Virus genome (UHGV): UHGV-0179428 | From: a virus | Direction: 5' to 3' (one strand) | Length of the DNA stretch: 64,000 nucleotides | Made by a program: the position numbers and the translations under genes | Notes under the pieces: model-generated | Told to the model about the DNA's origin: nothing | The model's database searches: none | What the model saw: only the letters and a program-made list of their open reading frames with translations | Part shown: positions 17,703 through 53,587 of the stretch, piece after piece | How positions within the stretch are numbered: the first letter of the stretch is position 1 | Layout: each line of letters begins with the position of its first letter

Positions 17703-18341
17703 TTATGGAGTTACAGTGTATTCGTTTAACGCAGCGTCAAAAATACCCCGAGAGATTTCTTTTGCATCAGAAATCGTAATCTGAGGTTCCCGTTCACTAC
17801 ACGCTACAGTAAGTTCGTAGAATGAACCGCCCTTTAATAGCTGGTTAGCATTCAAACGAACGTCTTGGTTAAGCGCTACTGCTAACGTGTGAGTGTATCC
17901 GTTGTTTGCCAGTCGAACTAAACGCAGTTCACCGACCATACTAGGTTTAATTTCCCAGTTCGATAAGCGGTGAGGAACAATCCACACTTCATTAGCGCGG
18001 TAAGGCTCAGCCGACAGTTCTATCGAGGGCTGGACAACATCACGTTCGTCGAACCCATACAGATAAAAACGTGGCACAGCGGTTGTGGTTTCCGCAGGTG
18101 TAAAGTAACGACGGACACCACGCAGGCAACGTTCTAAATCGACAGAGCAGCAAATACGGGGTACCGTTTTGTCTTCGTCTCTGTAAACGCTATAAGGAAT
18201 CCGAGGCGTGAAAACCGAAATCTTTCGATCGCTGATATGTAACGGGGCGCTATCTAACTTTTTCAAAGAAACTTTCTTTGCGGTGCGCGGCAGTTGTTGC
18301 TCTAACCACTTCACCAACGAAGGTTCAATAGTATCAGCCAT
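17703..18341 (-). CDS. hypothetical protein (212 aa)
   Basis: ORF contiguous with 18342-19145. Confidence 0.5.
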   Translation of the reverse strand: MADTIEPSLVKWLEQQLPRTAKKVSLKKLDSAPLHISDRKISVFTPRIPYSVYRDEDKTVPRICCSVDLERCLRGVRRYFTPAETTTAVPRFYLYGFDERDVVQPSIELSAEPYRANEVWIVPHRLSNWEIKPSMVGELRLVRLANNGYTHTLAVALNQDVRLNANQLLKGGSFYELTVACSEREPQITISDAKEISRGIFDAALNEYTVTP

Positions 18342-19145
18342 TTACCACTTCCCGTTACCTAAACCCATAACACGCAGGTTAGTTTTCTTATTAGCGATGG
18401 CCAGGTACTCCTGCGCTAACGCACGAACTTCACCACGACGAGATTCTGTCGCGATAGTAGACGTAGTGTTAGGATTTCGCAGAATGTCCTCCAGCGCCTG
18501 GAGGGAGACGCGACGATCCAGCAGAACGCGTGTGGATTCTTGAGCCACTTTACTACCGCGTTGAATCGCAGAGTATTTGTTACAAATCTGCAACCCGTCT
18601 TCGATAACCCAGTCAAACGTTACCAGGCGATCCAGGCGACGTGTTTTCACACCACCTACATAACCTTCGCGTACGATTGCACGCAGAGAGAAACACACAT
18701 TCTGGTGTGGGTTTTCGAGCGCTTCTGCTAAGTACGGACCACGTTCACGGTTCGGCTTAATCCAGCCCCAGATTTCCATAACCGGCAACCCGTTACAGGT
18801 TTGGTCGGTTGGAATCACTTCAACTTCACGAATGTGCATACAGACGTTTTTCGTCTCAATCCATTCGTTGCGATCAATCCATTGCGCTTCGGTCATACCA
18901 GGTTCTGGTGCTGGGTGATCTTCTTCCCCGAACAGATTCCCTGCTTTCACTTTACGCATAAAGATATTCGAGCGTTCGAATACGTGCTTAGACTCGTTAT
19001 AGGCGTAAAAAATCCCTTCCGAGTTAAAGATATTCAAAGCACCCAATAGTACGCGGTAATAACCATCCGCGTCTTTCTCCAGTGTGGCTGGAGCGTTAAC
19101 ACCGGCTAACGCTACGCAGTTGTAACGCAGTGTTAAATTGTCCAT
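18342..19145 (-). CDS. hypothetical protein; very tentatively a prohead protease
   Basis: Size and position in the morphogenesis block only; no catalytic motif confirmed. Confidence 0.25.
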   Translation of the reverse strand: MDNLTLRYNCVALAGVNAPATLEKDADGYYRVLLGALNIFNSEGIFYAYNESKHVFERSNIFMRKVKAGNLFGEEDHPAPEPGMTEAQWIDRNEWIETKNVCMHIREVEVIPTDQTCNGLPVMEIWGWIKPNRERGPYLAEALENPHQNVCFSLRAIVREGYVGGVKTRRLDRLVTFDWVIEDGLQICNKYSAIQRGSKVAQESTRVLLDRRVSLQALEDILRNPNTTSTIATESRRGEVRALAQEYLAIANKKTNLRVMGLGNGKW

Positions 19146-19176
19146 TGTTTTCCCCGAGTAAAAGTAAAAGGTAAGA

Positions 19177-19911
19177 TTACCTCATAAACAAATCTTCGAG
19201 CGGTTCGGCACGCACCGGGTCAACCTGTAGCGCAGAACGAATACCACGTTTAAGTTCTACGTCTGCAAGTTTCGCCAGTCTCGACGTTTTGTTAAGTGAA
19301 CCACTGCGCAATGGAATAAACTGCACAGGGTTGTTAAGATCGCTATCTTTCTTCAGCGTGTAACGGAAGAACGTTCTCGGATCACCTACTTTACGCTGTG
19401 TGTGCGCTGCGTAAACGTCAGCGGTAATCTGATCGGCAAATACAGTAAAACCGTTCCATTTCTTGACTTTATCAGGTGCCAAGAGTTCAGCATCATCCGC
19501 TGCAGTAAACCAGAAAGGACGATTACCAAAGTCGTAAATATACGACGCAATGTTGTAAATAGGGTGAGACAACACCTGTAAATTGCGGTTGGGGAAAACC
19601 ACTGTACCGGGATCAAAACGAAATTCGTAATAAGGAACACCAAAGACGTCGATCTCTTCAAACGCCGTTGGGGTAATCTCCATAAGCGTTGTAACGCTGG
19701 ACACCCCATATGTTTTACGGTCGGTAGAAATCGCAAAGATCCCTACAATTGTTACCGTAGAAGAAATAACCGCCAACTCTTTCGCCACAAACCCAACGGG
19801 GATGTAAATGTAACATCCCCCTTTGGTAGTGGTGACCGTGCCGTTATTTACCAAGTCCGCATGAACCTTAGTAGGGTCACGACGGGCTGTTTCAATCGCA
19901 CTCACGATCAC
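19177..19911 (-). CDS. hypothetical protein (244 aa)
   Basis: ORF only. Confidence 0.5.
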   Translation of the reverse strand: MIVSAIETARRDPTKVHADLVNNGTVTTTKGGCYIYIPVGFVAKELAVISSTVTIVGIFAISTDRKTYGVSSVTTLMEITPTAFEEIDVFGVPYYEFRFDPGTVVFPNRNLQVLSHPIYNIASYIYDFGNRPFWFTAADDAELLAPDKVKKWNGFTVFADQITADVYAAHTQRKVGDPRTFFRYTLKKDSDLNNPVQFIPLRSGSLNKTSRLAKLADVELKRGIRSALQVDPVRAEPLEDLFMR

Positions 19912-19923
19912 CTCCTAAGCGCG

Positions 19924-21384
19924 TTAAAGTTTATCGACAAATACTGAACCTGCAATCCAGTTCAGTACATAGTCAATCATCCAACTGGTTGCGGCTTCTG
20001 CCGGGTCGGTGTTCTCAATCATCGCGGTATGAATCGTACGCATCAGCGGATCAATTTCGTAGGCGCAGAATACGGAGTTACATGCAGTCCGGATGATAAA
20101 CAACGTAATGTCTTCGTCTGCGTTGACAAAGAAATCATCACAAATACCCATAACAACCTGCTTGACTTCTTCGCGAGTACGCGTCAGTTCGCCAACAGTC
20201 AGGTAGCCCTGGTCGAGTTGGTCGATTGCAATCGAGAACGCTGTTTTCAGCGCCTGACGGTTACGACTTACCCAGTCGAGTTCATTTCGTTTCTGAACGA
20301 TAATCGCACGACGATTGTAAGCTTCAACGTAGGCTTTCTGGTTTTCCAGCAGAGACGCGACTCGTGCGGAAACGTTATAGTCGCCTTCGTCCATCAGGTA
20401 AATGGCACCCAACAGGGCTTCAACGATACCGCCTTTTTCCAGGTAGTCATCCATCGTTTCCTGACAGATATAGACGTTTTTCTCGTTGGTATCGTAAGAG
20501 TAAACGATGTTACCTGTGGCGACACGGTTAGCCACCGCTTTTTCGAAACCGTATACCCATCCGATAGACGTGTAGTACGCACGACCCATTTCCGCTTTCC
20601 ATTTCAGGGCGTCAACACCTGAGTCAGGCCACGGACGTTCAATGAAGAACGAAGACAACAGCAGTACCAGAACACGTTCTTTTACCATCTCCGGTGCTTT
20701 ATCTGCAACAGGTACGGTGTAGTTACCTGCCAGCAGCAGTTTTGCTGCATCGTACATGCTGAGATTCAGGTCGTTCAGTAATTTACGTACCAGTTCATCA
20801 TACGCTTTTACACCTGTTTCCGGAATCTCGATGTCGGTCGGTACATCGAACTTGATCGGGTCGTAAGTCGTACCGTTACCCATCGGGTTGGCGATTTCTT
20901 GAATCAGTGCCTGGACAACTGGAGAATCTACACACGGGTCGATACCTACTGGAATCAGGTTCCAGTCTTCGACCAACGGTTTGACATCTTCAATCGTGTT
21001 ATTCTGGATAACCAACTGTACAAACGGTTGAACAACGTTACGGGCAAAGTCTAGCATCCCGTTACAACGCTGAATGGCCATGTTCTTCAGTTCGAATAGC
21101 GTGGTTTCGTGATCGTCAACACGCAGTGCTTCAACTTCAACAGCGCCGTCACGAATAATCGAAGCTTCCGCCGTACCGTCTACAGGACGTTTAAGCTGCG
21201 TAATCGCGGGCAGTTCCTGGAAGAACTGTTCGTCGGTGATTGTGGTATCGAAAACGCGGGTAGGGTCGACCGCACGGTTGAGCAAATCAACCGGAGAGTC
21301 AACATCTGTGCCAAGCTGAACATTATGCTGTTTGCACAGTTTCATGGCGTTAGTAACCGCATTCAGCGAGTATAAACTGATCAT
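19924..21384 (-). CDS. hypothetical protein, probable virion component (486 aa)
   Basis: Long ORF; ATGA overlap with upstream gene. Confidence 0.55.
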   Translation of the reverse strand: MISLYSLNAVTNAMKLCKQHNVQLGTDVDSPVDLLNRAVDPTRVFDTTITDEQFFQELPAITQLKRPVDGTAEASIIRDGAVEVEALRVDDHETTLFELKNMAIQRCNGMLDFARNVVQPFVQLVIQNNTIEDVKPLVEDWNLIPVGIDPCVDSPVVQALIQEIANPMGNGTTYDPIKFDVPTDIEIPETGVKAYDELVRKLLNDLNLSMYDAAKLLLAGNYTVPVADKAPEMVKERVLVLLLSSFFIERPWPDSGVDALKWKAEMGRAYYTSIGWVYGFEKAVANRVATGNIVYSYDTNEKNVYICQETMDDYLEKGGIVEALLGAIYLMDEGDYNVSARVASLLENQKAYVEAYNRRAIIVQKRNELDWVSRNRQALKTAFSIAIDQLDQGYLTVGELTRTREEVKQVVMGICDDFFVNADEDITLFIIRTACNSVFCAYEIDPLMRTIHTAMIENTDPAEAATSWMIDYVLNWIAGSVFVDKL

Positions 21385-21674
21385 TGTTTAACCTCTTTAT
21401 TCGTGCTGATGTTCGCCTGAAGCATCGCGTACAAACGCGCGCCCACCAGATCTGCGATATCACGTTTCAGCAGTTTCTGATCACCGATACGGTCAGACAT
21501 TCCTGAGTTACCGCGAATCAGACCATGCACAATCTCCGTTGCTAATTCGACAGTATTACCTAAAGACACGTAGTTGGTACGTTGAATGGGACTGTATCCC
21601 TCCACGTTTTGCTGGGTAATATTTTTCCCAGTCGGAATACCGTGCCGCTGTTTGATTTTATCTAGAATAGACAT
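21381..21674 (-). CDS. hypothetical protein (97 aa)
   Basis: GGAGAAGAGA RBS; translationally coupled to the next gene. Confidence 0.45.
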   Translation of the reverse strand: MSILDKIKQRHGIPTGKNITQQNVEGYSPIQRTNYVSLGNTVELATEIVHGLIRGNSGMSDRIGDQKLLKRDIADLVGARLYAMLQANISTNKEVKQ

Positions 21675-21695
21675 TCTCTTCTCCGGAGTTTACAA

Positions 21696-21714
21696 GGGTG
21701 GGAGCGACCCACCC
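21696..21714 (-). promoter_or_regulatory. Intergenic stem-loop abutting an RBS, no U-tract
   Basis: GGGTGGG-N5-CCCACCC between the 1388-aa gene stop and the RBS of gene 21381-21674. Confidence 0.4.
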
Positions 21715-21721
21715 CTCGAGA

Positions 21722-24700
21722 TTATTTAAGTGTCGCGGGTAAATCAGGCACAGCCTCCCCATCGAGTATACGCCCGATGAGAATCCCGGCTTGTTCACCT
21801 ACAGCATTCGCGGTACCGATACGTTGGATTGAACCTACGATACGCGCATCGACGGAATCACGACCGAACAACACGTCCAGGTCATCACCATCCTCTGTTT
21901 TGTTATCCCCGTACATGACTTCTTGTACGGTGGTTTTTAGCTGGTTAGCAATAACCATCTTATCCGCAGCGGCCATCTCAACGTCGTGTGTAATAAAGAA
22001 TCGAACACAAAGTGAGTTAAAGGCCAAGGGTACACCTTCGACACGGTAGTCGCCGTTTACACTGCCTGAAACCGGATCGCCCCGCCCGACTGCCAAAGCG
22101 GCTTTACGACGAATTCTGTCGTATTTACGCACCAGTTCAGCAAGGCTTGGTGTCATGTCTTCGGTTTCACCGTGATACACCACTTCGATTTTATCCACGA
22201 TACCACGTACCCCTGCACGAGGTGCGTACGAACTTAAACTTTGCAACGTTGCGGCTGCTTCCTGACTAAAGGCACTCATATCGCCTGTCAAGTCGTCAGT
22301 AAACGTGCATAGGATTGTATCGACGTCTACGTGGTCTCCCTCATTCACGATTTCCAAAAGCATCTGGTTGCTGTTAATCGTCACTTCTTTCAGCTTTGTT
22401 ACCTGCCCCACCATTTTCTTCGCGAACCGTTCAGAAATTGCGTTGGAGTCTTCGATAACTTCTTCAGCTTCTAATAAAGCAACGGTGGCCAGCACCCCGT
22501 TTTTCCAGGAAACTTGAGTAGGATCGTAAATATCAGGTTCAAAGTGTTGCTCGTTGTACGTAATCACTGCTCCGGCCGGGAGCTTGTCACCGGCTTTCCA
22601 GCGTGTTACCAAGGTGTGCGGATAGAAGGTACCTTCGTGGGGGCCGAACCAGCGCCCTAGAGGAAAGGCTTCTTTACTTCCATCTTCGTACGTAATTTCA
22701 ATGTGGTCTTTCGACAGACCAGTAATCTTACCTGCTTTATCAATAACGCGTGCATGTTTCACCGAAGTACGGTGAGCGACGAATTTCTCCTGTTCAGTAC
22801 GATACGGGGTTGTGGTTGCCCCATTACAACTGGTGGCAGAACCTAACTGAATCCCAACGAAGTTTTGACGTTTTGCATCGTCCATTAACGTATCGGGTAC
22901 TAACCCGTCAATAAACGAAAGAGTATCGCTTGGTTTCGGGGTTTTCTCTTCACGCTTAAACGTGGTACCGTCAACGGTGTCAAAACGTGGGTTATTGGTG
23001 ACGAAAGCAGTAATCCCTACGTCGCCGTTATCTACGGTGTTACCCGAGACTATCCCGATATCACTGGGTTGGAACTCACGCGTGTGGTAGACCATCGTTT
23101 TACGATTACGACCACCTGTACCCCCCATCGTAATAACGTCTTTTTCTTTAATTGACTGGATAGGGTTAGCACCAGGTGCCAAAAGTACCGACGGGTCGGA
23201 GTTAATTGCACCCCAAACCATATCTTGCGTCAGTTCGAACTTACGGTTACTGCCCGGTGCGTTATTGTAGTTACGCATCGCTCTGACCATCGCAGTATAG
23301 ATGTGGTAGGCAATCCTCTGATTTCCTAAGAACATCATTTCATCGCCGTTAATCTCTGGTAAAGAGTGGTCAGTTTGTAACAGTTCGTTAGAACGTTCCA
23401 GCAAGCCAATAAAGGTTTCCGGCTCACCCATTTTCCTGAGGATACGTGCGTGCATGTCGTCAACAAACGCGGACCGCATCTGTTTCAGCTCGTTGATGTA
23501 CCGTGGTGTTAGGCCATCTGCTTCACGTAATAAGTTCAGGTAAATGTCTTCGCGGTCTGCTTCTGATTCGGTATAAGCAACCAGGTGTTTGAGATAGCGA
23601 TCCAAACCATGCAGAATCATCTTCTGTTGATCGTTATCGCAAGTAACTAAAAGTTTACAGTCTTGTAGTCGAATAATACTGTCGTAGGCATTCTTATCAA
23701 CACGCTGTCCTGTAGGAACCAACTCGTACTGGATACCGAAATGTTTCAACATTCCCTGGAGTCCAAGATAGAACGAGAAGATAAAACCAAGCGACAAAGA
23801 TTTACCCATCAAAGACAGCTCGGTCATTTCGCGAGGCACTTTCTGGTTATTAAAGCCCAGTACCTCTGCGATAGTTCCCACCGGTTCAACTTTGTTTCCG
23901 TTCACACCGTAAAGCATGGATTTGTCATCCATTGCCAGGATTGTTTCACTACGCGGACGTTTCGCCACTGGTAAAAGTTTGGCAGCATCGGCGTCTCTGA
24001 GCTGCTCGTCGTTAAAGAAGTTAACGGCTTCTTTGTAGTCGAAGTTCCACATATAGCCATTCGCATTAAAGCTGGCAATACGGCGTGCAATCTCCGTATA
24101 CTGGCGCGGCAGATGTTGCGTAGGATCGAACACATTTGCTAAACGTGCATCGGTGACTTCGGTGTTTGTCGGATCAACAGCACGTGTGATAATCGCGTTG
24201 GTTAACCAACGACCGTAATCGTTCGCGACCTTATCACTACGACGGACAAAGTTTTTACCGTAAGCGGTAGTCAGCGCGACTGTATCCGGTGCAACTTTAC
24301 GGATCGGTAAGTCCACACGTTGACGACGCATGGTGTATTCGACGCCGTTAGCTACCCAAGTGCCATCCTCGGTCAAACCCGGGATAGAGAAGCGAACGGT
24401 TGTTGGCTCACCACCGACCGGCTGAACACGTAAAGTGTGGTGTTCGATAGTCCCTGTAACAGAAACTTCTTTTTCCACTGTGTGGTTGTGAACTGCCAGA
24501 CCCAAACGTTGTGAACTGGCGACAGCTGCCAGCACGTCCTTGGTCATCATGGTCTGGTTGTACTGTTTCACCATCTGGTCAGTGACGTTCTCGGCCCATC
24601 CTTCGTCGGTAACAAGCCGCTGAACTTTTTTCGGTTCAGCTTTAACGACGATATCCTTCTCGTGAACAGTAAGCGCTTCCCCGTAGGTTTCTTTCGGGTT

Positions 24701-25888
24701 ATACGGGTTAGGCAGCTGAACGAAACGTTTAGACGATTCTGACAGGAACTGATATGCTTTAGAACTTAAGCGGCCCGCTTCAGCTAAGCGTTGTGCTTCC
24801 TGTTTAATAATTTCGTCGTGCGGAATGACTTTCTCGACAACAATTGTCGTCGGTTTGACGTCTTCCTTCGGTTCTTCAATAACAACGTCTTCTTTTTCAT
24901 CGAAGGTGTTATCGGATTCCACCACAGCGTCATTAACAACGTCGTCATCATCGACAACATCGACAGTTTCTTCTTCGACGTCTTTAAGGAAAACACGTTC
25001 GTCGCCTTCAGGTGTTAGGAATTCTGCTTCATACGCGTTAGACGGTGCTTGCGTCATTACACGCACCAGCGTACGGTAGAACATCCTGGCCATTTGGTCG
25101 TCACTTAAACGGCCGCCGGACGATTTACGCATTTTCTCTACAACACCCATGTTCATGGACGTAAAGCCCGTGTTGTGGGTGAAGATAAAGTTCATTCGTG
25201 ACAGCTGAGTTAAATCCATCCCCGAGAATAAGGAATCGGATTGTTTTCCATAAGCCCAAGCAAACAACTCCAATAGCCACAGCAAGTTGAAGTCCTGGAA
25301 CTTCTCAATCTTGCTCTTAACGCGGTCGTTATAGGTTGTTTGAAACTTCTGGAACGAAGGTAGAGTCGAACCCAGTTCAATAACGAAATAGTTCTGACGC
25401 ATGTATTCTTGCGTGTCGTATTTGAACTGGTTAATCATCAACAGTTGGATGTTACGCAATCTATCGTACCAGGCTAACTGGGTGTCAGGATAGTAGTAGT
25501 GCGATAGCATCGGCGTGTAGTTCTCGACCAGGAGAACTTTTAAGTCTTTACGAACCAGATCGTCTGAGGTAAGACGACGCATCGGGCGGTTTGCACGGTG
25601 GTAGGCAAAGATAGCACGTTCTTGTCCCTGGACAGGTTTGTTACGCGGATGACCGCTAATACCGTCTTCCGGTAATTTAAAGTGGTGACGAACCTGCGCA
25701 GGTTTTTCTAACGGTTGAATAATCTCGAGTGTTGCAGGCGGCGCTAACACCACCTGGTCGAGATCAATGACATGGAGTACAGAACCACGTGGTATCTGTA
25801 GCTTCTCGAGCGGGATAATCCTCGGATTACCAAACTCGTCAGTTTTACGCACCGAGAAGCGTTGGTTAAACTGTTTAATGAGCAGCAT
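21722..25888 (-). CDS. large protein (1388 aa); candidate RNAP subunit partner or virion protein
   Basis: Adjacent to and co-oriented with the beta-prime-like gene; acidic low-complexity stretch; no RNAP beta motif confirmed by eye. Confidence 0.5.
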   Translation of the reverse strand: MLLIKQFNQRFSVRKTDEFGNPRIIPLEKLQIPRGSVLHVIDLDQVVLAPPATLEIIQPLEKPAQVRHHFKLPEDGISGHPRNKPVQGQERAIFAYHRANRPMRRLTSDDLVRKDLKVLLVENYTPMLSHYYYPDTQLAWYDRLRNIQLLMINQFKYDTQEYMRQNYFVIELGSTLPSFQKFQTTYNDRVKSKIEKFQDFNLLWLLELFAWAYGKQSDSLFSGMDLTQLSRMNFIFTHNTGFTSMNMGVVEKMRKSSGGRLSDDQMARMFYRTLVRVMTQAPSNAYEAEFLTPEGDERVFLKDVEEETVDVVDDDDVVNDAVVESDNTFDEKEDVVIEEPKEDVKPTTIVVEKVIPHDEIIKQEAQRLAEAGRLSSKAYQFLSESSKRFVQLPNPYNPKETYGEALTVHEKDIVVKAEPKKVQRLVTDEGWAENVTDQMVKQYNQTMMTKDVLAAVASSQRLGLAVHNHTVEKEVSVTGTIEHHTLRVQPVGGEPTTVRFSIPGLTEDGTWVANGVEYTMRRQRVDLPIRKVAPDTVALTTAYGKNFVRRSDKVANDYGRWLTNAIITRAVDPTNTEVTDARLANVFDPTQHLPRQYTEIARRIASFNANGYMWNFDYKEAVNFFNDEQLRDADAAKLLPVAKRPRSETILAMDDKSMLYGVNGNKVEPVGTIAEVLGFNNQKVPREMTELSLMGKSLSLGFIFSFYLGLQGMLKHFGIQYELVPTGQRVDKNAYDSIIRLQDCKLLVTCDNDQQKMILHGLDRYLKHLVAYTESEADREDIYLNLLREADGLTPRYINELKQMRSAFVDDMHARILRKMGEPETFIGLLERSNELLQTDHSLPEINGDEMMFLGNQRIAYHIYTAMVRAMRNYNNAPGSNRKFELTQDMVWGAINSDPSVLLAPGANPIQSIKEKDVITMGGTGGRNRKTMVYHTREFQPSDIGIVSGNTVDNGDVGITAFVTNNPRFDTVDGTTFKREEKTPKPSDTLSFIDGLVPDTLMDDAKRQNFVGIQLGSATSCNGATTTPYRTEQEKFVAHRTSVKHARVIDKAGKITGLSKDHIEITYEDGSKEAFPLGRWFGPHEGTFYPHTLVTRWKAGDKLPAGAVITYNEQHFEPDIYDPTQVSWKNGVLATVALLEAEEVIEDSNAISERFAKKMVGQVTKLKEVTINSNQMLLEIVNEGDHVDVDTILCTFTDDLTGDMSAFSQEAAATLQSLSSYAPRAGVRGIVDKIEVVYHGETEDMTPSLAELVRKYDRIRRKAALAVGRGDPVSGSVNGDYRVEGVPLAFNSLCVRFFITHDVEMAAADKMVIANQLKTTVQEVMYGDNKTEDGDDLDVLFGRDSVDARIVGSIQRIGTANAVGEQAGILIGRILDGEAVPDLPATLK

Positions 25889-25897
25889 TGCTTAGCC

Positions 25898-27517
25898 TTA
25901 TGGGTTCTTTAATAACGCTTGCGTTGCACGTTTAATCACGTTGTTGATAGGATTGATTTTAAAGTTCCCATCAGAATCGAACCAGTAGTTTTTCGAGTGT
26001 ATCCAATTCCGGTTTTCCTCGAGCGCTTCCTGGGACATAGGCGCGTTAAACGACCCGGTATCGCCGTCGTAGTCACCCCCTAACCCACCTAGGCGTGAGG
26101 GGTGTGGTGCCATCGACTCAACGAAGGTAGGAACCGACCGGTCAGGGTAGCTGATAGCCCCTCGGGGTTTTTCAGTTTCCCAGTCATCTTCCAGTTCTTT
26201 TAAGTATAAAGATGACGTGGTGGTCTCCAATCTTATGGTCGATGAATACGTCGAGCCTCGGCCTGTAACGGGATAACGTGTAACGAAACCGAAATAATCG
26301 TTCCAAAGTTCGTAGCCCGACAAATAAAGCAATTCGACGAGTGTCATACCGTGGACGAACTTTCGGTCAAACGTTTTAGGAAGTTCTTCAATATCGTAGA
26401 ACACCTTAAAATGTTTGGTGTCTTGGTAAACCAACGCAATGTAGTGGGTGTCGTCCAACATAATCGGCTGATGGCGAAGCTCGCGAGCTTCCATTCGGTT
26501 GATTAAGGATTCAATCCCATCGTCGGTGGTAAAGGTGTCGTATACACGACCACCTACTTCCAAGAATTCACGTTTAAGGGTTTTGGTGTTTACGCCGTAA
26601 AGGTTGCCATCACCAGCACGGATGTTACCGAGGTAACGTTCACGTATTTGGTACTGCGCAACAGGGAGTAATGCTTTTAAACCCTGGTATAAACCAATTT
26701 TGGTGTCGGTAGGACGAATAGCGTCTTCACGACCCATGCATTTAGACCCCGTCGAGAACGAGGACAATACGTTACGTGTCCCGTTCATTAATTTACGAGA
26801 CGTCACTTTACGACGTTGGAAACCCCCTTTACCGTCCTGGATGTTAAAGAAATACATCCAGATATCATTGAAGGTTTGTTGAAGTTTCCAGCGTACGGGG
26901 TTAGTTAATTCGACACGGGTTGCTCGGTCAGGGATTGCCCTGGCGAGAGATACCAACCGACGATACATCCCACCGATTTCTTCTTCCTGTTCTCTACCAT
27001 CTTGTCGAATTACTAAATCGCGTAAACCCGCGGGTAACACGAGAACGTATCGACTAAGACTAACGGGACGGAATTTCAAAAAGAAATCCACAGTTTCGTC
27101 ACGTTGTAGGGACTCGTTACGCTTAGGTTTTAAATCGTTATAGTGACTGAGGAAGAAGTTAAAACCGGTGTCTGCGCCTGGGTCTCCCGGCAAGGCCGGT
27201 TCGAAATCTTTTTCTTTTTCGCTCCACGTTGCGTAGCGTTTTCCAGAACAAATTTCTTCGTAGAGTTGTTTGAGTTGGAATAACGCCAAACACACCGTCG
27301 GCGAAATGATATCGAGTTTAATATCGATATAAGAGAAAGTAGAGTCTCGCGCTTCACTCCCCGTGAGTCCAAATATCTCTGTAGAGTAAAGACCTTCGGG
27401 GTGAAAGTTTTTTGTTAACCCCTGGAAAGTATCCGTGGTCGTGACGGGTCGTAATCGCGACACAAGAGACTTGTTTACATTGAGCAGATAAAAGTCAACC
27501 CAATTAAGTTTATTCAC
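25898..27517 (-). CDS. multisubunit RNA polymerase beta-prime-like fragment (N-terminal part)
   Basis: GGDYDGDTGSFNAPMS parallels the catalytic NADFDGDQMAVHVPLS of beta-prime; motif encoded at 26060-26074; the protein ends ~60 aa after the motif, so it is a split subunit. Confidence 0.6.
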   Translation of the reverse strand: MNKLNWVDFYLLNVNKSLVSRLRPVTTTDTFQGLTKNFHPEGLYSTEIFGLTGSEARDSTFSYIDIKLDIISPTVCLALFQLKQLYEEICSGKRYATWSEKEKDFEPALPGDPGADTGFNFFLSHYNDLKPKRNESLQRDETVDFFLKFRPVSLSRYVLVLPAGLRDLVIRQDGREQEEEIGGMYRRLVSLARAIPDRATRVELTNPVRWKLQQTFNDIWMYFFNIQDGKGGFQRRKVTSRKLMNGTRNVLSSFSTGSKCMGREDAIRPTDTKIGLYQGLKALLPVAQYQIRERYLGNIRAGDGNLYGVNTKTLKREFLEVGGRVYDTFTTDDGIESLINRMEARELRHQPIMLDDTHYIALVYQDTKHFKVFYDIEELPKTFDRKFVHGMTLVELLYLSGYELWNDYFGFVTRYPVTGRGSTYSSTIRLETTTSSLYLKELEDDWETEKPRGAISYPDRSVPTFVESMAPHPSRLGGLGGDYDGDTGSFNAPMSQEALEENRNWIHSKNYWFDSDGNFKINPINNVIKRATQALLKNP

Positions 27518-27546
27518 GCTAAATCTCCTGATACGGATTAAACGTT

Positions 27547-30500
27547 ATGGCTAAAAAAGGTAAAGATGATTTCGATGAAATCGATCTTGATAACATGGAC
27601 GACTGGGACGATTTTGATGAGCCCCCTCGTCAACAAGACCAATCGCGTAACCCGGTCATGGACACATTTCGTGCTGCCCGTAAGTCGGCGTTGTCGACTA
27701 TCTGGCCCGAAAACAAACGTGATCAGGTTATTTTAAAAGGGATGCCTAAACCTGCGGCAGAAGCCTACGAAGGCTATCAAAACGTTAAAGCTGCAGGTCA
27801 AGACATTCTGGCCCATACGAAAGACGAGATTGAAAAGACGTCTCGCGTCGTTAAGATGCAAGCGAGACAGTTAGGCCCAACACTGAAACGGTATTTACCG
27901 GAATCCGTAACACGGAAAATCGACAAGTGGGCACGTAACGATCAAATCGACTATGGGAATTACGATCCTAAACAAGCGATGATGGATCGTGAGCTGGACA
28001 GCGTGTTCTCAGGCGCACCGCAAACAGCGGACCAGCAACGTGAAACGCAAGAAGGGATGGTTGAAGACCGCCTGCGTGACACGATTAAGGACATGAAGTC
28101 CGACGCACTGTTCCAGACCGTAATCGGTATTGCAAAAGACGTCAACTTAACGACTAGCTTAAGTCGCGGTGTGTTGTTGAATGTTCAGCGTAAGCAGTTA
28201 GAGCTGCAATATCGGACATTGTTTGCTTTGCAGGATATTGCGAAACTCAAACAAGACGAGTTTGCACGCAACACCCCGGCATTAGAAGCTATCGTTAAGA
28301 ACACGGCACTACCCGACTACGCGAAGGAAGAGTTTTCTGAAATTCGTTGGGCTAATGTAAAACGTAAAGCTGCGGAGTGGATGAACCCCTTACACTACGC
28401 AGATAATTTCATTGGTCAGATTCGCGAAAACGCGAAGAAGAAAATCTCGAACATCTTTAGTGATGGTCGTGGGATTCTAGAACAAGTTCTAGGGATGGCT
28501 CAGGAAGATGACTTTGACATGTCGGACAGCTCATCGTTGTCTCCTGACCGTCGTAACACAAACTCGCGCAATAAAGCGGCAGGTTTTGCAGGTGGTTGGT
28601 TAGCAAAACGTCTCCTACAACCACAGATCGAGCGTCTTCAGAACTGGACCCGTGGCGAGTTGGAGAAAAATCCAGAAGTCATGAAACGCCTTCAGTTGGC
28701 GAAGTATGGTTTTGGAAATTTGTCGTCCATTTCTAACTCAGCAATAGCAGGAGAAACAAGCGGTCCGTTAGCTGATCTGTTTCGACTAATGCACGAATTG
28801 GGATTGGTTAACCCGCTACGTCGCGAAACGTTAGCATTAGACGATCGTTCTGCGGAATCTCTTTCTGCGGCGGCGAAATTCGATCGTAAAGCTTACCTCA
28901 GCATCACTGAAGTTATTCCGACGTTATTGTCCGAGATTAACAAATCTATTCGTCGTGGATATGGTGAACACCACGATCAGGTTTATGACCTGACCACACG
29001 CGGTATGGTGGATCGAAAAGTTATTGGCAATCGTGTACGTAAGGCAGTTGCTAATGACGATCAGCGTAAACGTTTACAGACTTACATCAACGACACTGTC
29101 GACTTTATCGATAAAGATAAAACGCTCGATAGGAAAACACGTCAAGCGTTAGCGGACTACATCGAATCTCGTGCCTCAGAAGGGAAAGCGTTCGATGTAG
29201 GGTCTTTATTGAAAGACCCGATGCACATGTATCGTTACATGAACGCAAACGCTGTGGAAGCGATTCAAGGTGTTTTAGAAGCCCGTTCTGCGGAACTGGT
29301 TGGTGGACACCATGAACTGAGTAATGCGATTTCAAACAAAATCGCCGCTATCCAGTCAACGATTCGTGCACGTCAAGACACGGTTGATGCTGCGTCTGTG
29401 ATTTACGGCGAGAACGCACTTCGTGATTCCGGTATTTTTAAATACGATGCGAAGAATGACATTTTCGAAGTCGATAAGGACATTAACGATCCCTATACGT
29501 TATTTAATGACCTGTCGATGGGTAAGACCCGCTCTGGACGTTCGTTAACACGTGAGCAAGAGATTCAGCGTAAATTGCAAAACGGTTCTGCGCTGGGTGA
29601 TTACTTGCGTCGGATGGGTGCAGGCGCAGAGCCGAGCTTTGAAGACAAAGAACTGTCCAATGTGCGTGGCGGTGGAAAAGGTGGCCGTGGTCGCGGTTTA
29701 AGCGCACGCCAACTCGCTGCGGTACTTTATGGAGAGAAATCCACTAACTTTGTTGAACTATTAAGCAGTCGTCCAGACACGAACGCCGGGTTGGAACAGC
29801 AATTCGACCGTTTGATTGATGCTGTACGTAAACAGCCTGAGTCTAGCACAGTGCAAGATATCCTCAAACACGTTAAGAACATGGATGAGGAAGGTATTCT
29901 CCTAGCCAGTTTAGGCGGTAGTCGTGATGACGGTAACGAAACTGAAAGTTCGAGTGACTCGGGTCGTAAACGTCGTCGTAAACGCAAACGTATTGTGCTA
30001 GGCGAGACAGGCTTGTTACGCCGTTGGGCTGGAGTGCTTTGGGATACCGGTTCAGGTGTAGGGCGTTTTGGTAAGAATCTGTTCCTACGTGGGAAAGATC
30101 GTCTGCAGGCTTTAGGTGGTTTTATCCGTGGGAAATTCTCAGGCGGCTCCTCCGAAGGACCCGGTGTATTTAGCCGACTGAAAGGGTTAGTAACAGGTAC
30201 TCTATCGACAGGTTGGAATTCTGCTGTAGCTTTCGGTAAAGGCGTTTTAGGTGTTCGTGATATTTACGATGAACGTGGCAACGTCGTATTACAAGGAAGT
30301 CGTTTAGAAGCTGGGGAATATTACCAGGCTGACCCGAAAACTGAGAAGCTGATTCAACTTAAAACCCTCGACGACATCAAACTGGGACGTGATATTGTCG
30401 ATGAAGCGGGTAATTTAATCTTAGCTGCTGCTGATTTGGCTGCCGCAGGTAAACTGCGCTTCTACAAAGGTGGTAAAGTTCAAGCGCTTTTCCAGTACAT

Positions 30501-33500
30501 TTCTGGGAAAGCAGGAACGGCGGTAAACAAGGCTGTGACTTTACCGAAGAAACTTCTGGGCTTCATTTCACCTAAAGCGGCTTCGTTGTTCGAGAAAGCA
30601 CGTGAGTGGCTAAATGAGGTTCCAGAGGGCGCAGAGAAAACCCGTTTACAAAGCATGATTTCCCGTGTAACGGGAATGCCAGCGCGTTTGTGGAACAATG
30701 CAAAACGCGGGTTTGAGAAGCTCAAAGAGTTGGCTTCTGATAACCCATTGACACGTTGGTGGCAGAACCGTAAGGAAGGGGGTTCTGGTGGTGGGTTTAG
30801 TGTGTTCTCATGGTCGAATGGCCGTAAAACTAACCACATCTTAATCCGTATCTACAAACTCCTTAACCGGAGATTGCCAGGTGAACCAGAAGATGATACC
30901 TGGACAGAACAGATGGAGCGGAATACGGGAGCCAGCTCAGTTAAAGGATTATTCCAACGTGCTAAAGACATACGCGATGGGTTCCGTGAACATTTTCAGG
31001 GGTTCCGGGATTGGCGTGGTCGGATGCGTGACAGAATGTCCCGTTATCGCAGTGCGGTAGGCGGTCGTCTTTCTCGTTGGGGTGGTGCCGCACGTGGTTG
31101 GTTTGATCGTTTCCGTGGCCGTGCAAGCGATATGGTCGACACTTTCCGTGATCCACGTTTCGATATTGGAACACGTTATCGAATGGAGAGTCGTTTAGCA
31201 GGACGCGATGACGATGTTGCTGAGTTTTATCGTCAACACATCTACGCAAGAGGCAAAGTGTCTAAAACACGTATCATTGATGCGGCAAAAGAAGACTTAG
31301 ACACCGTAACGGATAGCGCTGGACGTGTGATTAATAAAGGGAAACAGAAAGCCCGTAGCGTTGGGTCAGCTTTACTGGAACGCCTGAACCGAATGGTTAA
31401 TCTTCAGGAAATGTCTTGGTTTAACACCATGCGTGATTCTGCGGAAAAAGCAGGTGCTTCGGACGGTTTGTTAAGAACTATGTTCAGTAAGTTCGGCCAA
31501 CGCAATAAGCCGCCTGCCAGTGATGAAAAACGCGATTACTTCCAGTTCTTCCGACGCCGTCGTCGTTCTAAGGAAGAGGAAAAGGCTAAGAAAGAGGCTG
31601 AGAAGAAAGGCGGTAAACGTGGGGTAATGGATTTCCTTAAAGGACTGCCGTTGGTAGGACCAATTGTGAGTATTTTGGGCACAGTGGGTTCAATCTTAGG
31701 TAAAGTTGCAAAATGGGGAATCTTTAAGCCGGTTGGGTTTGCAGGCAAAGCGTTGTGGAACGTTGGTAAGTTTGCTGTGACCCGTTTGGCTGTCCCTGCG
31801 GTGAGTGCTGTCGCGACAGCGGCATCTGCAGTGGTAACTGCGGTTGGCTGGCCGATTATCGGTTTGGTCGCTGCAGGCGCTGCGCTGTCTTGGTTTGCGT
31901 ATAAAACTGCAACCCGTGTAAATGCCCAGTATCTGGATAACATGCGATTGGCACAGTACGGTTTTAGAGACCACGATGAATGGTCTTCCGACGACGGTGC
32001 AAAAGCACGTTATTTAGAAGACAACTTGAAACCGTATATCTCTTATACAGAGAACGGTCAAGCGCAGCTGCGTGGTTTGTCCGGTGACGACGTGAAGAAA
32101 CTGGCCGAAGGGTTTGGTACTAACGTAGAAGACAAAGGCGAAATGCTGGCGTTTACCGCATTTATGCTACAACGTTTTGTGCCGATCTATTTGCGTTGGA
32201 TTACAGCGTTACGTTCAATGGATAACGATATCGCGTTAGCTGACGTCGGTAATCCGTCGAAGGTATCAAAAGCAGACATGCTTACCATCTTTAACAAAAT
32301 GAAGATGACAAAAGATGCACCTGCTTTTAAATCGCTGACGGACCCCCGTAAAGTTAACCAAGGTTGGTTCTCTAAAGCGTGGGATTTCGTGACCTTCACA
32401 CCGGCAGAATTTTTGTCAGGCGAAGAAGTTGTCGAAGCACAAGATCGTGTTTTCCGTTCGATCAACATGCGCCGGGATGATAAGCGTAAGGAAACAACTG
32501 GAACCGGCGCTGTGCCTGAAGGACATAAGGTTGCTTCTGTGGCAGAATCTTCGCAGGTACTCGCGAAGAACGATACCGAACGTAACGAAACTGTTGCTAA
32601 AGCTGAGGGTTGGGAAGACGGTACTGAACAGGTTCAAATTCAAGTTGACTGGAGAGTATTACCTGAGAAGAAAGATTTGGACGCGATGGAATCCGTCCGT
32701 TGGAAATCTTACGGTGTGAAATCTGTTAATGAGACAACACGTACCCTCTTTAGATTGCTTGAGAAAGAAGTGCTGAAAGACACGGATATCAAAAATTGCA
32801 TTTATAAGGGCGATTGGAAGAAAGCAATTTCTGCGATTGCGCCTGATGCAATTGGCGGTCCAAAAGAGGAACGTTACAAGAACTGGTTCTATAATCGATT
32901 CTTACCTGTATTCATGACCTACGTTTATGGTGTAAAACGCTACGTACCTCATGCAGATCCGTTGGATTTGAAACTCACAGGGGGGTTCCTCTATGAGCTG
33001 GCACTGATGATGCGTGGTGCTTACAACATGAAAGGGGGTATCCGTCAGTCTGTGTGGGAAATCGCATTTAACCCGTTAGGAGGCGATGCGAATACTGACG
33101 CAGGTTCGGTGAAGGAAGAATTAGCAACGTTGAAAGAGTTGTCTAAAGAACCCGATCTGGCTGTAAGGAATATGCTCAAAGAAACACCGAGCACACCTAA
33201 GCGTATGACATGGAAATCACCAGCGACAAACTCCAGTGTCCATCAGACGAATGAAGATAGTAAAGAGCGTTATAAGGGAATTAACAGCTACGGCGAAGCT
33301 TCAAACGATGGATACTTACCAAAAGGTGGTCAGTCCTACGGTACGCCAGGTGACTTATCACAAGTTGTTGGCGATATGGGTATAGGGAACTACGCGAAGT
33401 ATTCCACTGGACAATCTGGTATCACCCTCGGTGAGTTACAAGACGGTGATTACAAATCGTTAGTGACTAAATACCCAAGGGAAATGCTCGGTAAACCGAT

Positions 33501-34713
33501 GCAGTCAAATACCGAAGCCATCAAGTCATTGATTATCGACGCGGCAAACATGGTGGGTGTTCCGCCATCCGTTGCGATTGCAATGGCACAAGCAGAATCC
33601 GGCTTACAGTATGGCAACTATCCTGGCGCATCCTCTGGTAGACCGAGAAGCAATAAGATGTCTGCCGCTGGCCTGTTCCAATTTACCAATGGCACTTGGA
33701 ACGGGGTTATGAAGCAATACGCACGAAGATACGGTATTCCACAAACCGATCAGTTCGACCCGTGGGCTAACGCAATCTTAGGCGTTAACTTCATTAGAGA
33801 CAACATCAAGACCGCACAAAAGGATCTTGGTGGAATTGCCCCACCTCCGGCAGTGGCGTACCTATACCACTTCTTAGGTCCAGGTGGTGGTGCTGAGTTC
33901 CTTAAAGCCTGGAAAACCAATCCTAACGGGTCGCCCGACAAAGTGAAGTACATTACACCTGCCGTTCTTAACGGTAATGAAGGTGTTTTCTATATCATGA
34001 ACGGGAAGAAACGCGTTAGGATGCGTACGATCGGTGAGGTTGTCGAGGAACTGAACCGCCGTATGGGCGCGGTTGGAACTAACGAGATTGCAGCAAATCC
34101 TGCGTCTGCGAAAAACATGACAAAAGGGTTATCGCCAGTTCCATCGTCCCCTGCAATTGCTGCTGGCGCAGCTAACGATCCGTCTATTGCTGGTCCGGCA
34201 GATAACCTGCCAGCCGCGAACGAGGCGAATCGTGACTCCGCTTTAGCAGACAAAGGAGCGATGGGCGCTGAAGATATTAAAGCTGCAACGGGTGGTGGTC
34301 CGGCTGTGCCGAGTCCTGGCGGTGATGTCACGCCAAGTGATGCGTCTGTCGTTGTTGAAACGGTGGGTCAAAATGCGCGTGCTGACGGCTTGGGAGAAGA
34401 GGAAGTTGCCAAAGTAAAAGAAGGTGCTAGACAGCAAATGGAGAAAACAGCTCGTCCTGCACCAACGGTAACGTCTGATGCACAGACCGCGCCAACGGTG
34501 AACAGCGGTGATCCGATTAACGTACAACAGCTGGCGGTTGCAAAAGAGTCTGCGGGTTATCTGAGAGAGATTGTTACAATTCTTCGTCAGCGGCCACAGG
34601 CTATGCAGTCCTCCCCAGCGAGTTCGGCAGCTTCTGCCCCGGGGTCAGCATCACGTAACATCGCGGTTGAACAACCTGCCCGCCAACTCGACGTTGGTCG
34701 TAAACGGGCGTAA
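27547..34713 (+). CDS. giant virion/ejection protein with lytic transglycosylase domain (2388 aa)
   Basis: SLT-like AMAQAESGLQYGN...AAGLFQFTNGTW (~33.5-33.9 kb); acidic N-terminus; Arg/Gly-rich segments; hydrophobic TM cluster (~31.6-31.9 kb); Ala/Pro/Ser-rich C-terminus. Confidence 0.7.
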   Translation: MAKKGKDDFDEIDLDNMDDWDDFDEPPRQQDQSRNPVMDTFRAARKSALSTIWPENKRDQVILKGMPKPAAEAYEGYQNVKAAGQDILAHTKDEIEKTSRVVKMQARQLGPTLKRYLPESVTRKIDKWARNDQIDYGNYDPKQAMMDRELDSVFSGAPQTADQQRETQEGMVEDRLRDTIKDMKSDALFQTVIGIAKDVNLTTSLSRGVLLNVQRKQLELQYRTLFALQDIAKLKQDEFARNTPALEAIVKNTALPDYAKEEFSEIRWANVKRKAAEWMNPLHYADNFIGQIRENAKKKISNIFSDGRGILEQVLGMAQEDDFDMSDSSSLSPDRRNTNSRNKAAGFAGGWLAKRLLQPQIERLQNWTRGELEKNPEVMKRLQLAKYGFGNLSSISNSAIAGETSGPLADLFRLMHELGLVNPLRRETLALDDRSAESLSAAAKFDRKAYLSITEVIPTLLSEINKSIRRGYGEHHDQVYDLTTRGMVDRKVIGNRVRKAVANDDQRKRLQTYINDTVDFIDKDKTLDRKTRQALADYIESRASEGKAFDVGSLLKDPMHMYRYMNANAVEAIQGVLEARSAELVGGHHELSNAISNKIAAIQSTIRARQDTVDAASVIYGENALRDSGIFKYDAKNDIFEVDKDINDPYTLFNDLSMGKTRSGRSLTREQEIQRKLQNGSALGDYLRRMGAGAEPSFEDKELSNVRGGGKGGRGRGLSARQLAAVLYGEKSTNFVELLSSRPDTNAGLEQQFDRLIDAVRKQPESSTVQDILKHVKNMDEEGILLASLGGSRDDGNETESSSDSGRKRRRKRKRIVLGETGLLRRWAGVLWDTGSGVGRFGKNLFLRGKDRLQALGGFIRGKFSGGSSEGPGVFSRLKGLVTGTLSTGWNSAVAFGKGVLGVRDIYDERGNVVLQGSRLEAGEYYQADPKTEKLIQLKTLDDIKLGRDIVDEAGNLILAAADLAAAGKLRFYKGGKVQALFQYISGKAGTAVNKAVTLPKKLLGFISPKAASLFEKAREWLNEVPEGAEKTRLQSMISRVTGMPARLWNNAKRGFEKLKELASDNPLTRWWQNRKEGGSGGGFSVFSWSNGRKTNHILIRIYKLLNRRLPGEPEDDTWTEQMERNTGASSVKGLFQRAKDIRDGFREHFQGFRDWRGRMRDRMSRYRSAVGGRLSRWGGAARGWFDRFRGRASDMVDTFRDPRFDIGTRYRMESRLAGRDDDVAEFYRQHIYARGKVSKTRIIDAAKEDLDTVTDSAGRVINKGKQKARSVGSALLERLNRMVNLQEMSWFNTMRDSAEKAGASDGLLRTMFSKFGQRNKPPASDEKRDYFQFFRRRRRSKEEEKAKKEAEKKGGKRGVMDFLKGLPLVGPIVSILGTVGSILGKVAKWGIFKPVGFAGKALWNVGKFAVTRLAVPAVSAVATAASAVVTAVGWPIIGLVAAGAALSWFAYKTATRVNAQYLDNMRLAQYGFRDHDEWSSDDGAKARYLEDNLKPYISYTENGQAQLRGLSGDDVKKLAEGFGTNVEDKGEMLAFTAFMLQRFVPIYLRWITALRSMDNDIALADVGNPSKVSKADMLTIFNKMKMTKDAPAFKSLTDPRKVNQGWFSKAWDFVTFTPAEFLSGEEVVEAQDRVFRSINMRRDDKRKETTGTGAVPEGHKVASVAESSQVLAKNDTERNETVAKAEGWEDGTEQVQIQVDWRVLPEKKDLDAMESVRWKSYGVKSVNETTRTLFRLLEKEVLKDTDIKNCIYKGDWKKAISAIAPDAIGGPKEERYKNWFYNRFLPVFMTYVYGVKRYVPHADPLDLKLTGGFLYELALMMRGAYNMKGGIRQSVWEIAFNPLGGDANTDAGSVKEELATLKELSKEPDLAVRNMLKETPSTPKRMTWKSPATNSSVHQTNEDSKERYKGINSYGEASNDGYLPKGGQSYGTPGDLSQVVGDMGIGNYAKYSTGQSGITLGELQDGDYKSLVTKYPREMLGKPMQSNTEAIKSLIIDAANMVGVPPSVAIAMAQAESGLQYGNYPGASSGRPRSNKMSAAGLFQFTNGTWNGVMKQYARRYGIPQTDQFDPWANAILGVNFIRDNIKTAQKDLGGIAPPPAVAYLYHFLGPGGGAEFLKAWKTNPNGSPDKVKYITPAVLNGNEGVFYIMNGKKRVRMRTIGEVVEELNRRMGAVGTNEIAANPASAKNMTKGLSPVPSSPAIAAGAANDPSIAGPADNLPAANEANRDSALADKGAMGAEDIKAATGGGPAVPSPGGDVTPSDASVVVETVGQNARADGLGEEEVAKVKEGARQQMEKTARPAPTVTSDAQTAPTVNSGDPINVQQLAVAKESAGYLREIVTILRQRPQAMQSSPASSAASAPGSASRNIAVEQPARQLDVGRKRA

Positions 34714-48292: not shown

Positions 48293-48968
48293 ATAAAGCG
48301 GCATCTCGTGGGTCGACACCGACCCACTCTGCCATAAACCGGATATGTTCCTTAAACGGGTTAACCCCGTCTTGTTTGATTTGTTCAACCAATTCCCCGG
48401 TCAGTTCTGGTGTGAGCATGGCAGGGTGTGTGATGGTAAAGCTTGGAATCGGTTTTTTCAAGTGTGTGGCGTTAAGCTTAATCCACTCGAACCAATCGTA
48501 CATTATCCAGCAATCCCACGCCAATGACAATCTCCCTGGTGTGAGATCTTCTAACGACCAAGACACTAATTCAACTTGCACGTTATTGTAGTACATCCGA
48601 AACAGATTCAAAAAGGCTTGAAGTTCTTCGCCCGTTAAATCCGTATAAGGCCACGTATTGATGGTCAGAGTGGGTTTTTCAATTGGCGAATGCATTTCGA
48701 TTTCAAGCAACATACACTCGAATTCGTTTTTCATTGTTGCCAATAATTCAGTAGGCTGCGCATTAATCAACGCGCGCTTATCCCGCTTCCGCCACTCTTC
48801 ATCCCATTTTTCAAATCCAAGTACGCCAGCCCAAGCTTCTGTATAGCGACGACGATAAACATCGTAGTCTAGCAATGCTAAGCTTTCGGGCTTAACGGCT
48901 TTTACCCAACCTAAACGCGTATCAAATAACGTATCAATATCGATTAAGAAACGCCGAGATAATCTCAT
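48246..48968 (-). CDS. hypothetical protein (240 aa)
   Basis: 3' end overlaps the plus-strand gene by 47 nt. Confidence 0.5.
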   Translation of the reverse strand: MRLSRRFLIDIDTLFDTRLGWVKAVKPESLALLDYDVYRRRYTEAWAGVLGFEKWDEEWRKRDKRALINAQPTELLATMKNEFECMLLEIEMHSPIEKPTLTINTWPYTDLTGEELQAFLNLFRMYYNNVQVELVSWSLEDLTPGRLSLAWDCWIMYDWFEWIKLNATHLKKPIPSFTITHPAMLTPELTGELVEQIKQDGVNPFKEHIRFMAEWVGVDPRDAALFSLARPAQDVQTPPS

Positions 48969-49633
48969 GACGGATGGCCTATGTTGTTACCGATATGCAT
49001 CGCTTTTAGGTACGCCGACCACGTACGCGTTGCTTTAGAACTCGTTCGCTCCGCTCCAGGCAAATCAATACGCCCTTTACCGGTTTGGCGCAGCGATTGA
49101 TAGAAAGCACGTTGTAGTGCGTCGTTACCACCACGCGCCCACAAGAACTCTTTCAGTGTCCAATCGTGACCATCGGAGTACATGATGTATGCTTCTGGGA
49201 AGGACACCCCGGATGCTTTGGAAGGTCCGACGACTTGACCGGAGAGTTTATCGCGAACTTTGTCGTTTTTCGCAACCGCCATTTTCTTTTCTTGCATCTG
49301 TGTCTGACGACGGACAGGCAAGCGTAAGACTAAGTGAGGGTAACGAGTACGATGATAAACGCCCGTTTTTGGTTCTGTTAACCAGAGTCGTTGCTCCAGG
49401 TTTACCCCGAGAATTTTGCACACCTCGATATTGCGCAGGTGATCAATTTCGACTTTACTTCCCACCGGGTTGTAAATAGGTAAACCGTTACGAAGTCGGT
49501 TAAACTGTTCGTCGGTCATTCGTGCGAAGGCTTTCTTCGCGGCTTCAGCATTAATGCCAGAAGGGTCTACCAACTTTAAGATTTGTAAGGCGTAGGCTTC
49601 CGCCTTTTTACGCCGCGCTGGTTCGAGTTTCAT
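48965..49633 (-). CDS. hypothetical protein (222 aa)
   Basis: ATGA overlap with downstream gene. Confidence 0.5.
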   Translation of the reverse strand: MKLEPARRKKAEAYALQILKLVDPSGINAEAAKKAFARMTDEQFNRLRNGLPIYNPVGSKVEIDHLRNIEVCKILGVNLEQRLWLTEPKTGVYHRTRYPHLVLRLPVRRQTQMQEKKMAVAKNDKVRDKLSGQVVGPSKASGVSFPEAYIMYSDGHDWTLKEFLWARGGNDALQRAFYQSLRQTGKGRIDLPGAERTSSKATRTWSAYLKAMHIGNNIGHPS

Positions 49634-53562: not shown

Positions 53563-53587
53563 TTTAATACTCCTAAACACTTTTAGC

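Follow-up and report, generated by a model that had tools for sequence, protein, structure and literature searches.

The closest described counterparts of the locus analyzed here are the virion RNA polymerases (vRNAPs) of the jumbo phages SPN3US and phiKZ. In SPN3US, the enzyme is composed of gp240 (beta-prime N-terminal subunit, beta'N), gp241 (beta N-terminal subunit, betaN), gp42 (beta'M), gp218 (beta C-terminal subunit, betaC), and gp244 (beta-prime C-terminal subunit, beta'C). Each of these proteins resides in the head, and particles of amber mutants in gp241, gp218, or gp244 lack the entire set, a joint loss which suggests that the complex is assembled before packaging (PMC5105663; PMC5694885). 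The vRNAP of phiKZ includes gp180 (beta'N) and gp178 (betaN) together with gp80, gp149, and gp176, where gp180 co-precipitates gp178, gp80, and gp149; each virion contains about 10 copies of gp180, which enter the cell along with the DNA (PMC10612078). A five-piece vRNAP core with a common split of beta-prime after the catalytic barrel has been reviewed (PMC7598289). The present analysis concerns a stretch of 64,000 nucleotides of the virus genome UHGV-0179428 (the window), in which two adjacent genes encode proteins of 539 and 1388 amino acids (aa). These proteins are very probably the beta'N and betaN subunits of a virion-packaged, split multisubunit RNA polymerase (RNAP) of an SPN3US/phiEaH2-like jumbo phage related to phiKZ. 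The polymerase features assigned in the window are as follows, with identities taken from full-length BLASTP matches against the SPN3US record:

25898..27517, minus strand: beta'N gene, vRNAP beta-prime N-terminal subunit, 539 aa; orthologue of SPN3US gp240 (85.8%) and phiKZ gp180
26060..26074, minus strand: DYDGD, residues 482-486 of the 539-aa protein, a variant of NADFDGD; predicted Mg2+-binding Asp triad of the beta-prime double-psi beta-barrel
21722..25888, minus strand: betaN gene, vRNAP beta N-terminal subunit, 1388 aa; orthologue of SPN3US gp241 (76.6%) and phiKZ gp178
24449..25888, minus strand: betaN N-terminal extension, about residues 1-480, without counterpart in cellular beta
21935..21964, minus strand: DKMVIANQLK, residues 1309-1318 of betaN, with two conserved beta-barrel lysines spaced as in E. 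coli GDKMAGRHGNKG
48965..49633, minus strand: betaC gene (probable), vRNAP beta C-terminal subunit, 222 aa; orthologue of SPN3US gp218 (82.8%)
19177..19911, minus strand: beta'C gene (proposed), vRNAP beta-prime C-terminal subunit, 244 aa; orthologue of SPN3US gp244 (86.8%)

The resemblance to SPN3US extends over the full length of all four subunits present in the window, with lengths (window/SPN3US) of 539/537, 1388/1401, 222/222, and 244/240 aa, and the gene order from gp239 to gp245 is identical in the window, SPN3US, and SEGD1. SPN3US is nevertheless a different phage, as the window shares about 75% nucleotide identity with phiEaH2-like and SPN3US-like phages (about 75% with the Erwinia phages phiEaH2, Stratton, and Asesino, and about 74% with SPN3US-like Salmonella phages). 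The nearest proteins, at 93-99% identity, come from ~220-kb contigs of Salmonella enterica assemblies and of sequencing-run assemblies. Jumbo-phage records with a tblastn match to the beta'N family number 315, among them those of phiKZ, Goslar, PBS1, and Staphylococcus jumbo phages. The phiKZ beta'N subunit, while of the same family, is 32% identical by tblastn, and its match ends at query residue 458, which indicates that the motif-bearing C-terminal region is more diverged in phiKZ. The layout of the genes in phiKZ is equivalent and likewise divergent, with gp181 (tail-associated lysin) followed by gp180, gp179, and gp178; a difference is that an additional gene, gp179, separates the two subunit genes. 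In phiKZ, gp180 and gp178 carry the annotation of structural head proteins.

These comparisons support the placement of the window phage in the phiKZ/SPN3US jumbo-phage lineage. An earlier note, made from the sequence alone, had described open reading frames (ORFs) at 25898-27517 and 21722-25888 on the minus strand as a beta-prime-like fragment of a split RNAP, of the kind characteristic of phiKZ-like jumbo phages, and a possible partner subunit. Both ORFs were recovered with these coordinates and lengths, nucleotide identity, orthology, and gene order agree on the lineage, and the orthologous proteins have been shown experimentally to be vRNAP subunits (PMC5105663; PMC5694885; PMC10612078).

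The 539-aa protein and its active-site motif

The 539-aa protein contains GGDYDGDTGSFNAPMS, in which the DYDGD codons (GAC TAC GAC GGC GAT) lie exactly at 26060-26074. A large protein database yielded 1026 homologues, of which 30 diverse ones were aligned and 120 were listed. D482, D484, G485, and D486 were invariant in the 30-sequence alignment, where the family consensus reads ADFDGD. Among the listed homologues, D-[FYH]-DGD was found at the same position in 110 of 120, at a median of 54 residues before the C-terminus, and the middle residue was F in 63, Y in 37, and H in 10. A six-frame scan of the 64 kb revealed D.DGD only once, at the DYDGD site. As this is the sole occurrence in six frames, the residues are invariant, and the position is constant among homologues, the alignments indicate that the match is not due to chance. 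The reading of this segment in the earlier note as the beta-prime active site was thus borne out by the codons and by the invariant residues. The claim of a subunit split soon after the motif also stood, while the distance to the protein end proved to be 53 residues rather than the estimated 60 or so.

In the PHROGs database, the 539-aa protein belongs to phrog_2986, labeled 'RNA polymerase beta subunit' (E 7e-234). A search of the PDB with the family profile placed the beta'N subunit of the non-virion RNAP (nvRNAP) of phage AR9 first (7s01_d, E 4.4e-13), and also found plastid RpoC1 (E 1.4e-9) and cyanobacterial gamma (E 3e-6). Against E. coli beta-prime (E 3.7e-6), query residues 139-253 aligned with 217-356 and residues 469-529 with 447-508, the latter segment containing NADFDGD. 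Similarly, hhalign against E. coli RpoC (probability 89%, E 2.3e-6) paired VLPAGLRDL and GKGGFQRR...GTRNV with VLPPDLRPL and GKQGRFRQ...GRSV, such that collinear beta-prime homology was also found outside the motif, in the VLPPxLRP lid region and the GKQGRFR...GRSV region.

An AlphaFold2 (AF2) model built on the family alignment had a mean predicted local distance difference test score (pLDDT) of 80 and showed six strands around the motif (residues 409-415, 423-431, 436-442, 449-458, 469-471, and 487-491). In a Foldseek search of the PDB with this model, the best 50 matches were all beta-prime or gamma chains, with AR9 beta'N as the best (E 1.4e-14). The profile matches and the predicted structure support an assignment of the 539-aa protein as a beta-prime N-terminal fragment that carries the catalytic Asp triad.

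Of the solved structures, AR9 beta'N (PDB 7S00/7S01 chain d) comes closest, and its motif likewise reads DYDGD. The AR9 chain ends about 52 residues past this motif compared to 53 in the window protein, which points to a common beta-prime split site. In contrast to the vRNAPs, the AR9 enzyme is a non-packaged late-gene polymerase with a promoter-recognizing fifth subunit, and its beta'N is shorter (426-448 aa) and only about 15% identical in the Foldseek alignment. Cyanobacterial gamma and plastid RpoC1 are likewise beta-prime N-terminal polypeptides that end after the catalytic barrel, and they match beta'N both by profile (E 1.4e-9 to 8e-6) and by fold, although the cellular RNAPs of cyanobacteria and plastids additionally need alpha and omega. 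The split positions of the phage and the cyanobacterial/plastid beta-prime are said to coincide (PMC7598289). However, about 190 residues follow NADFDGD in plastid RpoC1 (chain 8qma_T) compared to 53 after the motif here, so the coincidence is only approximate in the present data.

A different kind of end was observed in nine cluster representatives of the beta'N family (P0100, P0106, P0107, P0111, P0112, P0114, P0117, P0118, and P0121). These are 478-497 aa long and terminate at '...LGAD', which falls inside the catalytic motif (GAD|FDGD). Matches by tblastn in Goslar and in Photobacterium, Vibrio, and Shewanella jumbo phages also end at query residue 473-475. In those lineages, the sequences suggest that the best-conserved position of the enzyme carries either an inserted intron or homing endonuclease, or a further split.

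The 1388-aa protein and its N-terminal extension

The 1388-aa protein is a member of phrog_3148 (E 0) and has weaker matches to other 'RNA polymerase beta' PHROGs. With a family profile of 19 sequences, the best PDB match was the beta subunit of T. thermophilus (1119 aa), with a whole-sequence E-value of 1.9e-11 over four collinear blocks, where query residues 506-529, 908-968, 984-1094, and 1297-1388 align with 117-140, 396-457, 531-639, and 822-916, respectively. Only the third block (region F) is significant alone, the other three being individually insignificant. The conserved beta regions B, D (fork), F (DDANR...Q), and H are present in collinear order, and N908/P909, D1003, R1007, and Q1014 are invariant in the family alignment. 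An alignment to E. coli RpoB by hhalign covers 516-1107 (E 7e-4, probability 27%).

The segment AADKMVIANQLK aligns with E. coli GDKMAGRHGNKG, and hhalign places DKMVIANQLK on E. coli beta 1062-1073. K1310 and K1318 are invariant and D1309 is nearly so, and the K-x7-K spacing is identical to that of K1065/K1073 in E. coli (GDKxxxRHGNKG). Among the full-length homologues matching end to end, DK-x7-K was found at the matching position in 30 of 31 (P0001-P0031, the exception being P0028), and also in the distant P0035. Region I (GGQRFGEME...) is absent from the protein, whose end corresponds to about E. coli beta 1107-1145.

According to these alignments, the 1388-aa protein is the N-terminal ~80% of beta, preceded by an extension of about 400-480 aa, and not a piece of beta-prime. 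The suggestion in the earlier note that this neighbor may be a partner subunit is hence confirmed, and the beta-prime C-terminal motif that was sought in it was not seen because the protein is a beta N-terminal fragment. Public records call the 539-aa and the 1388-aa proteins both 'RNA polymerase beta subunit', where the correct annotations are beta-prime N-terminal and beta N-terminal, respectively.

The match to cellular beta begins only at residue ~506, and searches of Pfam, NCBIfam, and the PDB gave no match covering the region before it. This extension is conserved within the family, as H39, G79, Y133, R164, and N246 are invariant, and SPN3US gp241 carries the same extension. The ~400-residue N-terminus of gp241 has been proposed as a head-targeting element (PMC5105663). 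An acidic, valine-rich low-complexity linker, VDVVDDDDVVNDAVVESDNTFDEKEDVVIEEPKEDVKP, was observed at 24950-25100 on the minus strand (residues ~300-345), between two conserved parts of the extension.

Further polymerase fragments and the surrounding genes

A PHROG scan of the plausible window ORFs of at least 120 aa revealed one further RNAP family member, the 222-aa ORF at 48965-49633 on the minus strand (phrog_3233, 'RNA polymerase beta subunit', E 6e-93). By hhalign, its residues 35-183 were placed on E. coli beta 1160-1309, the GGQRFGEME region. The alignment is weak (E 8e-4, probability 24%), and its placement complements the point at which betaN stops. A PDB search with the profile of this 222-aa protein's family gave no RNAP match, and NCBIfam scans of the 222-aa and the 244-aa proteins gave nothing meaningful. 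The 244-aa orthologue of gp244 belongs to a large family of 427 representatives. At the sequence level, this family returned only spurious PPR repeats from the PDB and an hhalign match to RpoC with an E-value of 0.27 in the wrong place. The AF2 model of the 244-aa protein is confident (pLDDT 94); a Foldseek search with it found nothing, while beta-prime SI3 inserts and plastid beta'' were named with the model as weak but non-random support for beta'C. The gp244-type proteins may thus be the beta-prime C-terminus, as published, for which the model provides a modest structural hint. Codon 3 is probably the true start of this ORF. Overall, the genes assigned to four of the five vRNAP subunits (beta'N, betaN, betaC, and the proposed beta'C) are located within the window.

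A 433-aa ORF (45092-46393) was considered as beta'M for its similar length. It was rejected, as it corresponds to SPN3US gp223 and is confined to 63 records of the SPN3US group.

The beta'N gene begins with GTG, preceded at 8 nt by GGAG. The betaN gene follows directly downstream in the same orientation, its ATG being 10 nt past the beta'N TAA. On the other side, only 29 bp (27518-27546) separate the divergent starts of beta'N (27517, minus strand) and a gene resembling gp239 and phiKZ gp181 (27547, plus strand). The promoters of either gene would hence lie inside the coding sequence of the other, or transcription would start from further upstream. This plus-strand gene sits where phiKZ has gp181, the tail-associated endolysin. 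A scan of 18000-28000 for sigma-70 promoters and terminators found no operon signals, and sigma-70-type promoter-like sites were fewer than in shuffled sequence (4 compared to 11.6 +/- 3.8). This scarcity fits expression driven by a phage polymerase, but is no proof of it.

The other recognizable genes of the window are a typical set of an SPN3US-like jumbo phage:

27547-34713, plus strand: 2388-aa protein with a C-terminal SLT lytic transglycosylase domain (Pfam PF01464, residues 1995-2093); SPN3US gp239 (61.2% identity)
267-aa protein: prohead protease, SPN3US gp245 (80.9% identity)
3558-5666: terminase large subunit
10854-12911: tail sheath
37570-38427: MazG-like pyrophosphatase
40423-41457: thymidylate synthase
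49952-51448: UvsX-like recombinase
57571-59091: RNase H-like ribonuclease

In addition, two adjacent minus-strand ORFs of 351 aa (52663-53718) and 308 aa (53588-54514) overlap by about 130 nt and both match phrog_6160, a PHROG of unassigned function. They are either tandem paralogues or the result of one start called too far upstream.

Alternative explanations and the proposed enzyme

Several observations weigh against an assignment of the two proteins to a virion RNAP. Neither protein is recognized by Pfam or NCBIfam. Single-sequence searches of the PDB were insignificant for the 539-aa protein (E 0.4 to plastid beta-prime) and returned no RNAP chain but only spurious laccase matches for the 1388-aa protein, so that the assignment of both depends on family profiles. 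The beta'N model has low global TM-scores of about 0.3, as is expected for an elongated multi-domain fragment modeled alone; its pLDDT falls below 50 at residues 480-482, at the motif itself; and its double-psi barrel is a prediction from the strand list and the Foldseek matches. The betaC and beta'C assignments come mainly from orthology, with weak direct similarity. A beta'M subunit (gp42 orthologue) was not found in the 64-kb window among the scanned ORFs of at least 120 aa, and its gene presumably lies outside the window, by analogy with gp42 in SPN3US. Finally, the evidence for the window phage itself consists of sequence comparison and predicted models, and virion packaging is known from the orthologues only. 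On the other side, the outcomes that the earlier note had listed against its own claim (no double-psi barrel predicted around DYDGD, a structural protein family matching the 1388-aa protein, and no other RNAP fragments) did not occur: the region around DYDGD folds like beta-prime in the AF2 model and its Foldseek matches, the 1388-aa protein was matched by its family profile to beta rather than to a structural protein family, and further RNAP fragments (the gp218 and gp244 orthologues) are present within the window.

It is very unlikely that the two proteins are subunits of a second, non-virion RNAP that serves late genes and stays outside the capsid. Among solved structures, a non-virion enzyme, that of AR9, is indeed the best match of beta'N, and such a reading could also draw on the weaker PHROG matches of the 1388-aa protein. 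However, the phage RNAP matches in the PDB were nvRNAP chains only, with no vRNAP chain among them, so the top match cannot discriminate between the two. The two proteins are instead full-length orthologues (77-86% identity) of gp240 and gp241, which were found in SPN3US heads by mass spectrometry, and they are syntenic with the structural head proteins gp180 and gp178 of phiKZ. Genes of the virion (prohead protease, gp239-like tail protein, sheath, and terminase) surround them, and the long N-terminal extension of betaN is one described for the virion subunit gp241. Head packaging in the relatives would equally suit catalytically dead RNAP descendants kept as capsid structural or ejection proteins, as would the extreme divergence from cellular RNAP, the lack of Pfam and NCBIfam matches, and the seeming absence of Zn-finger cysteines from the beta'N N-terminus as read from the sequence. 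This explanation is less probable still. Even though the family diverges to about 20-40% identity, the three Asp and the Gly of DxDGD do not vary, and neither do the two barrel lysines, a pattern expected under selection for catalysis. Additionally, gp241, gp218, and gp244 are essential in SPN3US, and early transcription in phiKZ has been attributed to the injected vRNAP (PMC10612078).

The spelling of the motif, DYDGD and not DFDGD, recalls single-subunit two-barrel polymerases of the YonO, crAss-phage gp66, or QDE-1 type, which often have DYDGD. Cellular RNA-dependent RNA polymerases and YonO-like enzymes use DbDGD. Within the beta'N family, however, F, Y, and H alternate at this position, and beta-prime homology reaches about 400 residues upstream of the motif, collinear with bacterial beta-prime 217-508. 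Instead of sharing one chain, the two barrels are divided between the proteins, with the 539-aa protein carrying the Asp barrel and the 1388-aa protein the Lys barrel. The separate barrels and the extended beta-prime homology refute a single-chain enzyme in practice, and its probability is negligible.

With the two proteins read as beta'N and betaN of a packaged vRNAP, the enzyme would be built from five polypeptides (beta'N, beta'M, beta'C, betaN, and betaC) as an alpha-less core, by analogy with SPN3US. The beta'N subunit would provide the double-psi beta-barrel with the DYDGD Asp triad holding the catalytic Mg2+, and betaN would contribute the beta fork and active-site regions along with the second barrel and its pair of conserved lysines. 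By the same analogy, the subunits may be made in mid or late infection and assembled into a complex before loading into the prohead or capsid, with the N-terminal extension of betaN possibly targeting the complex to the head. The complex would then leave the capsid together with the DNA, and its transcription of early phage genes would not require the host polymerase.

The two catalytic barrels are carried on separate polypeptides, and both subunits are split at defined places. The Asp triad, the barrel lysines, the beta fork, and the active-site regions are conserved at the level of sequence. The system is already known, as its orthologues have been characterized genetically and by proteomics in SPN3US and phiKZ, and no new principle is involved. 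The practical value of the find lies in the correct annotation of the subunits, the location of two further fragments, and the modest structural hint for beta'C. More broadly, packaged split RNAPs of this alpha-less kind free jumbo phages from host transcription, work inside the early infection vesicle, and represent minimal models of the two-barrel catalytic core.

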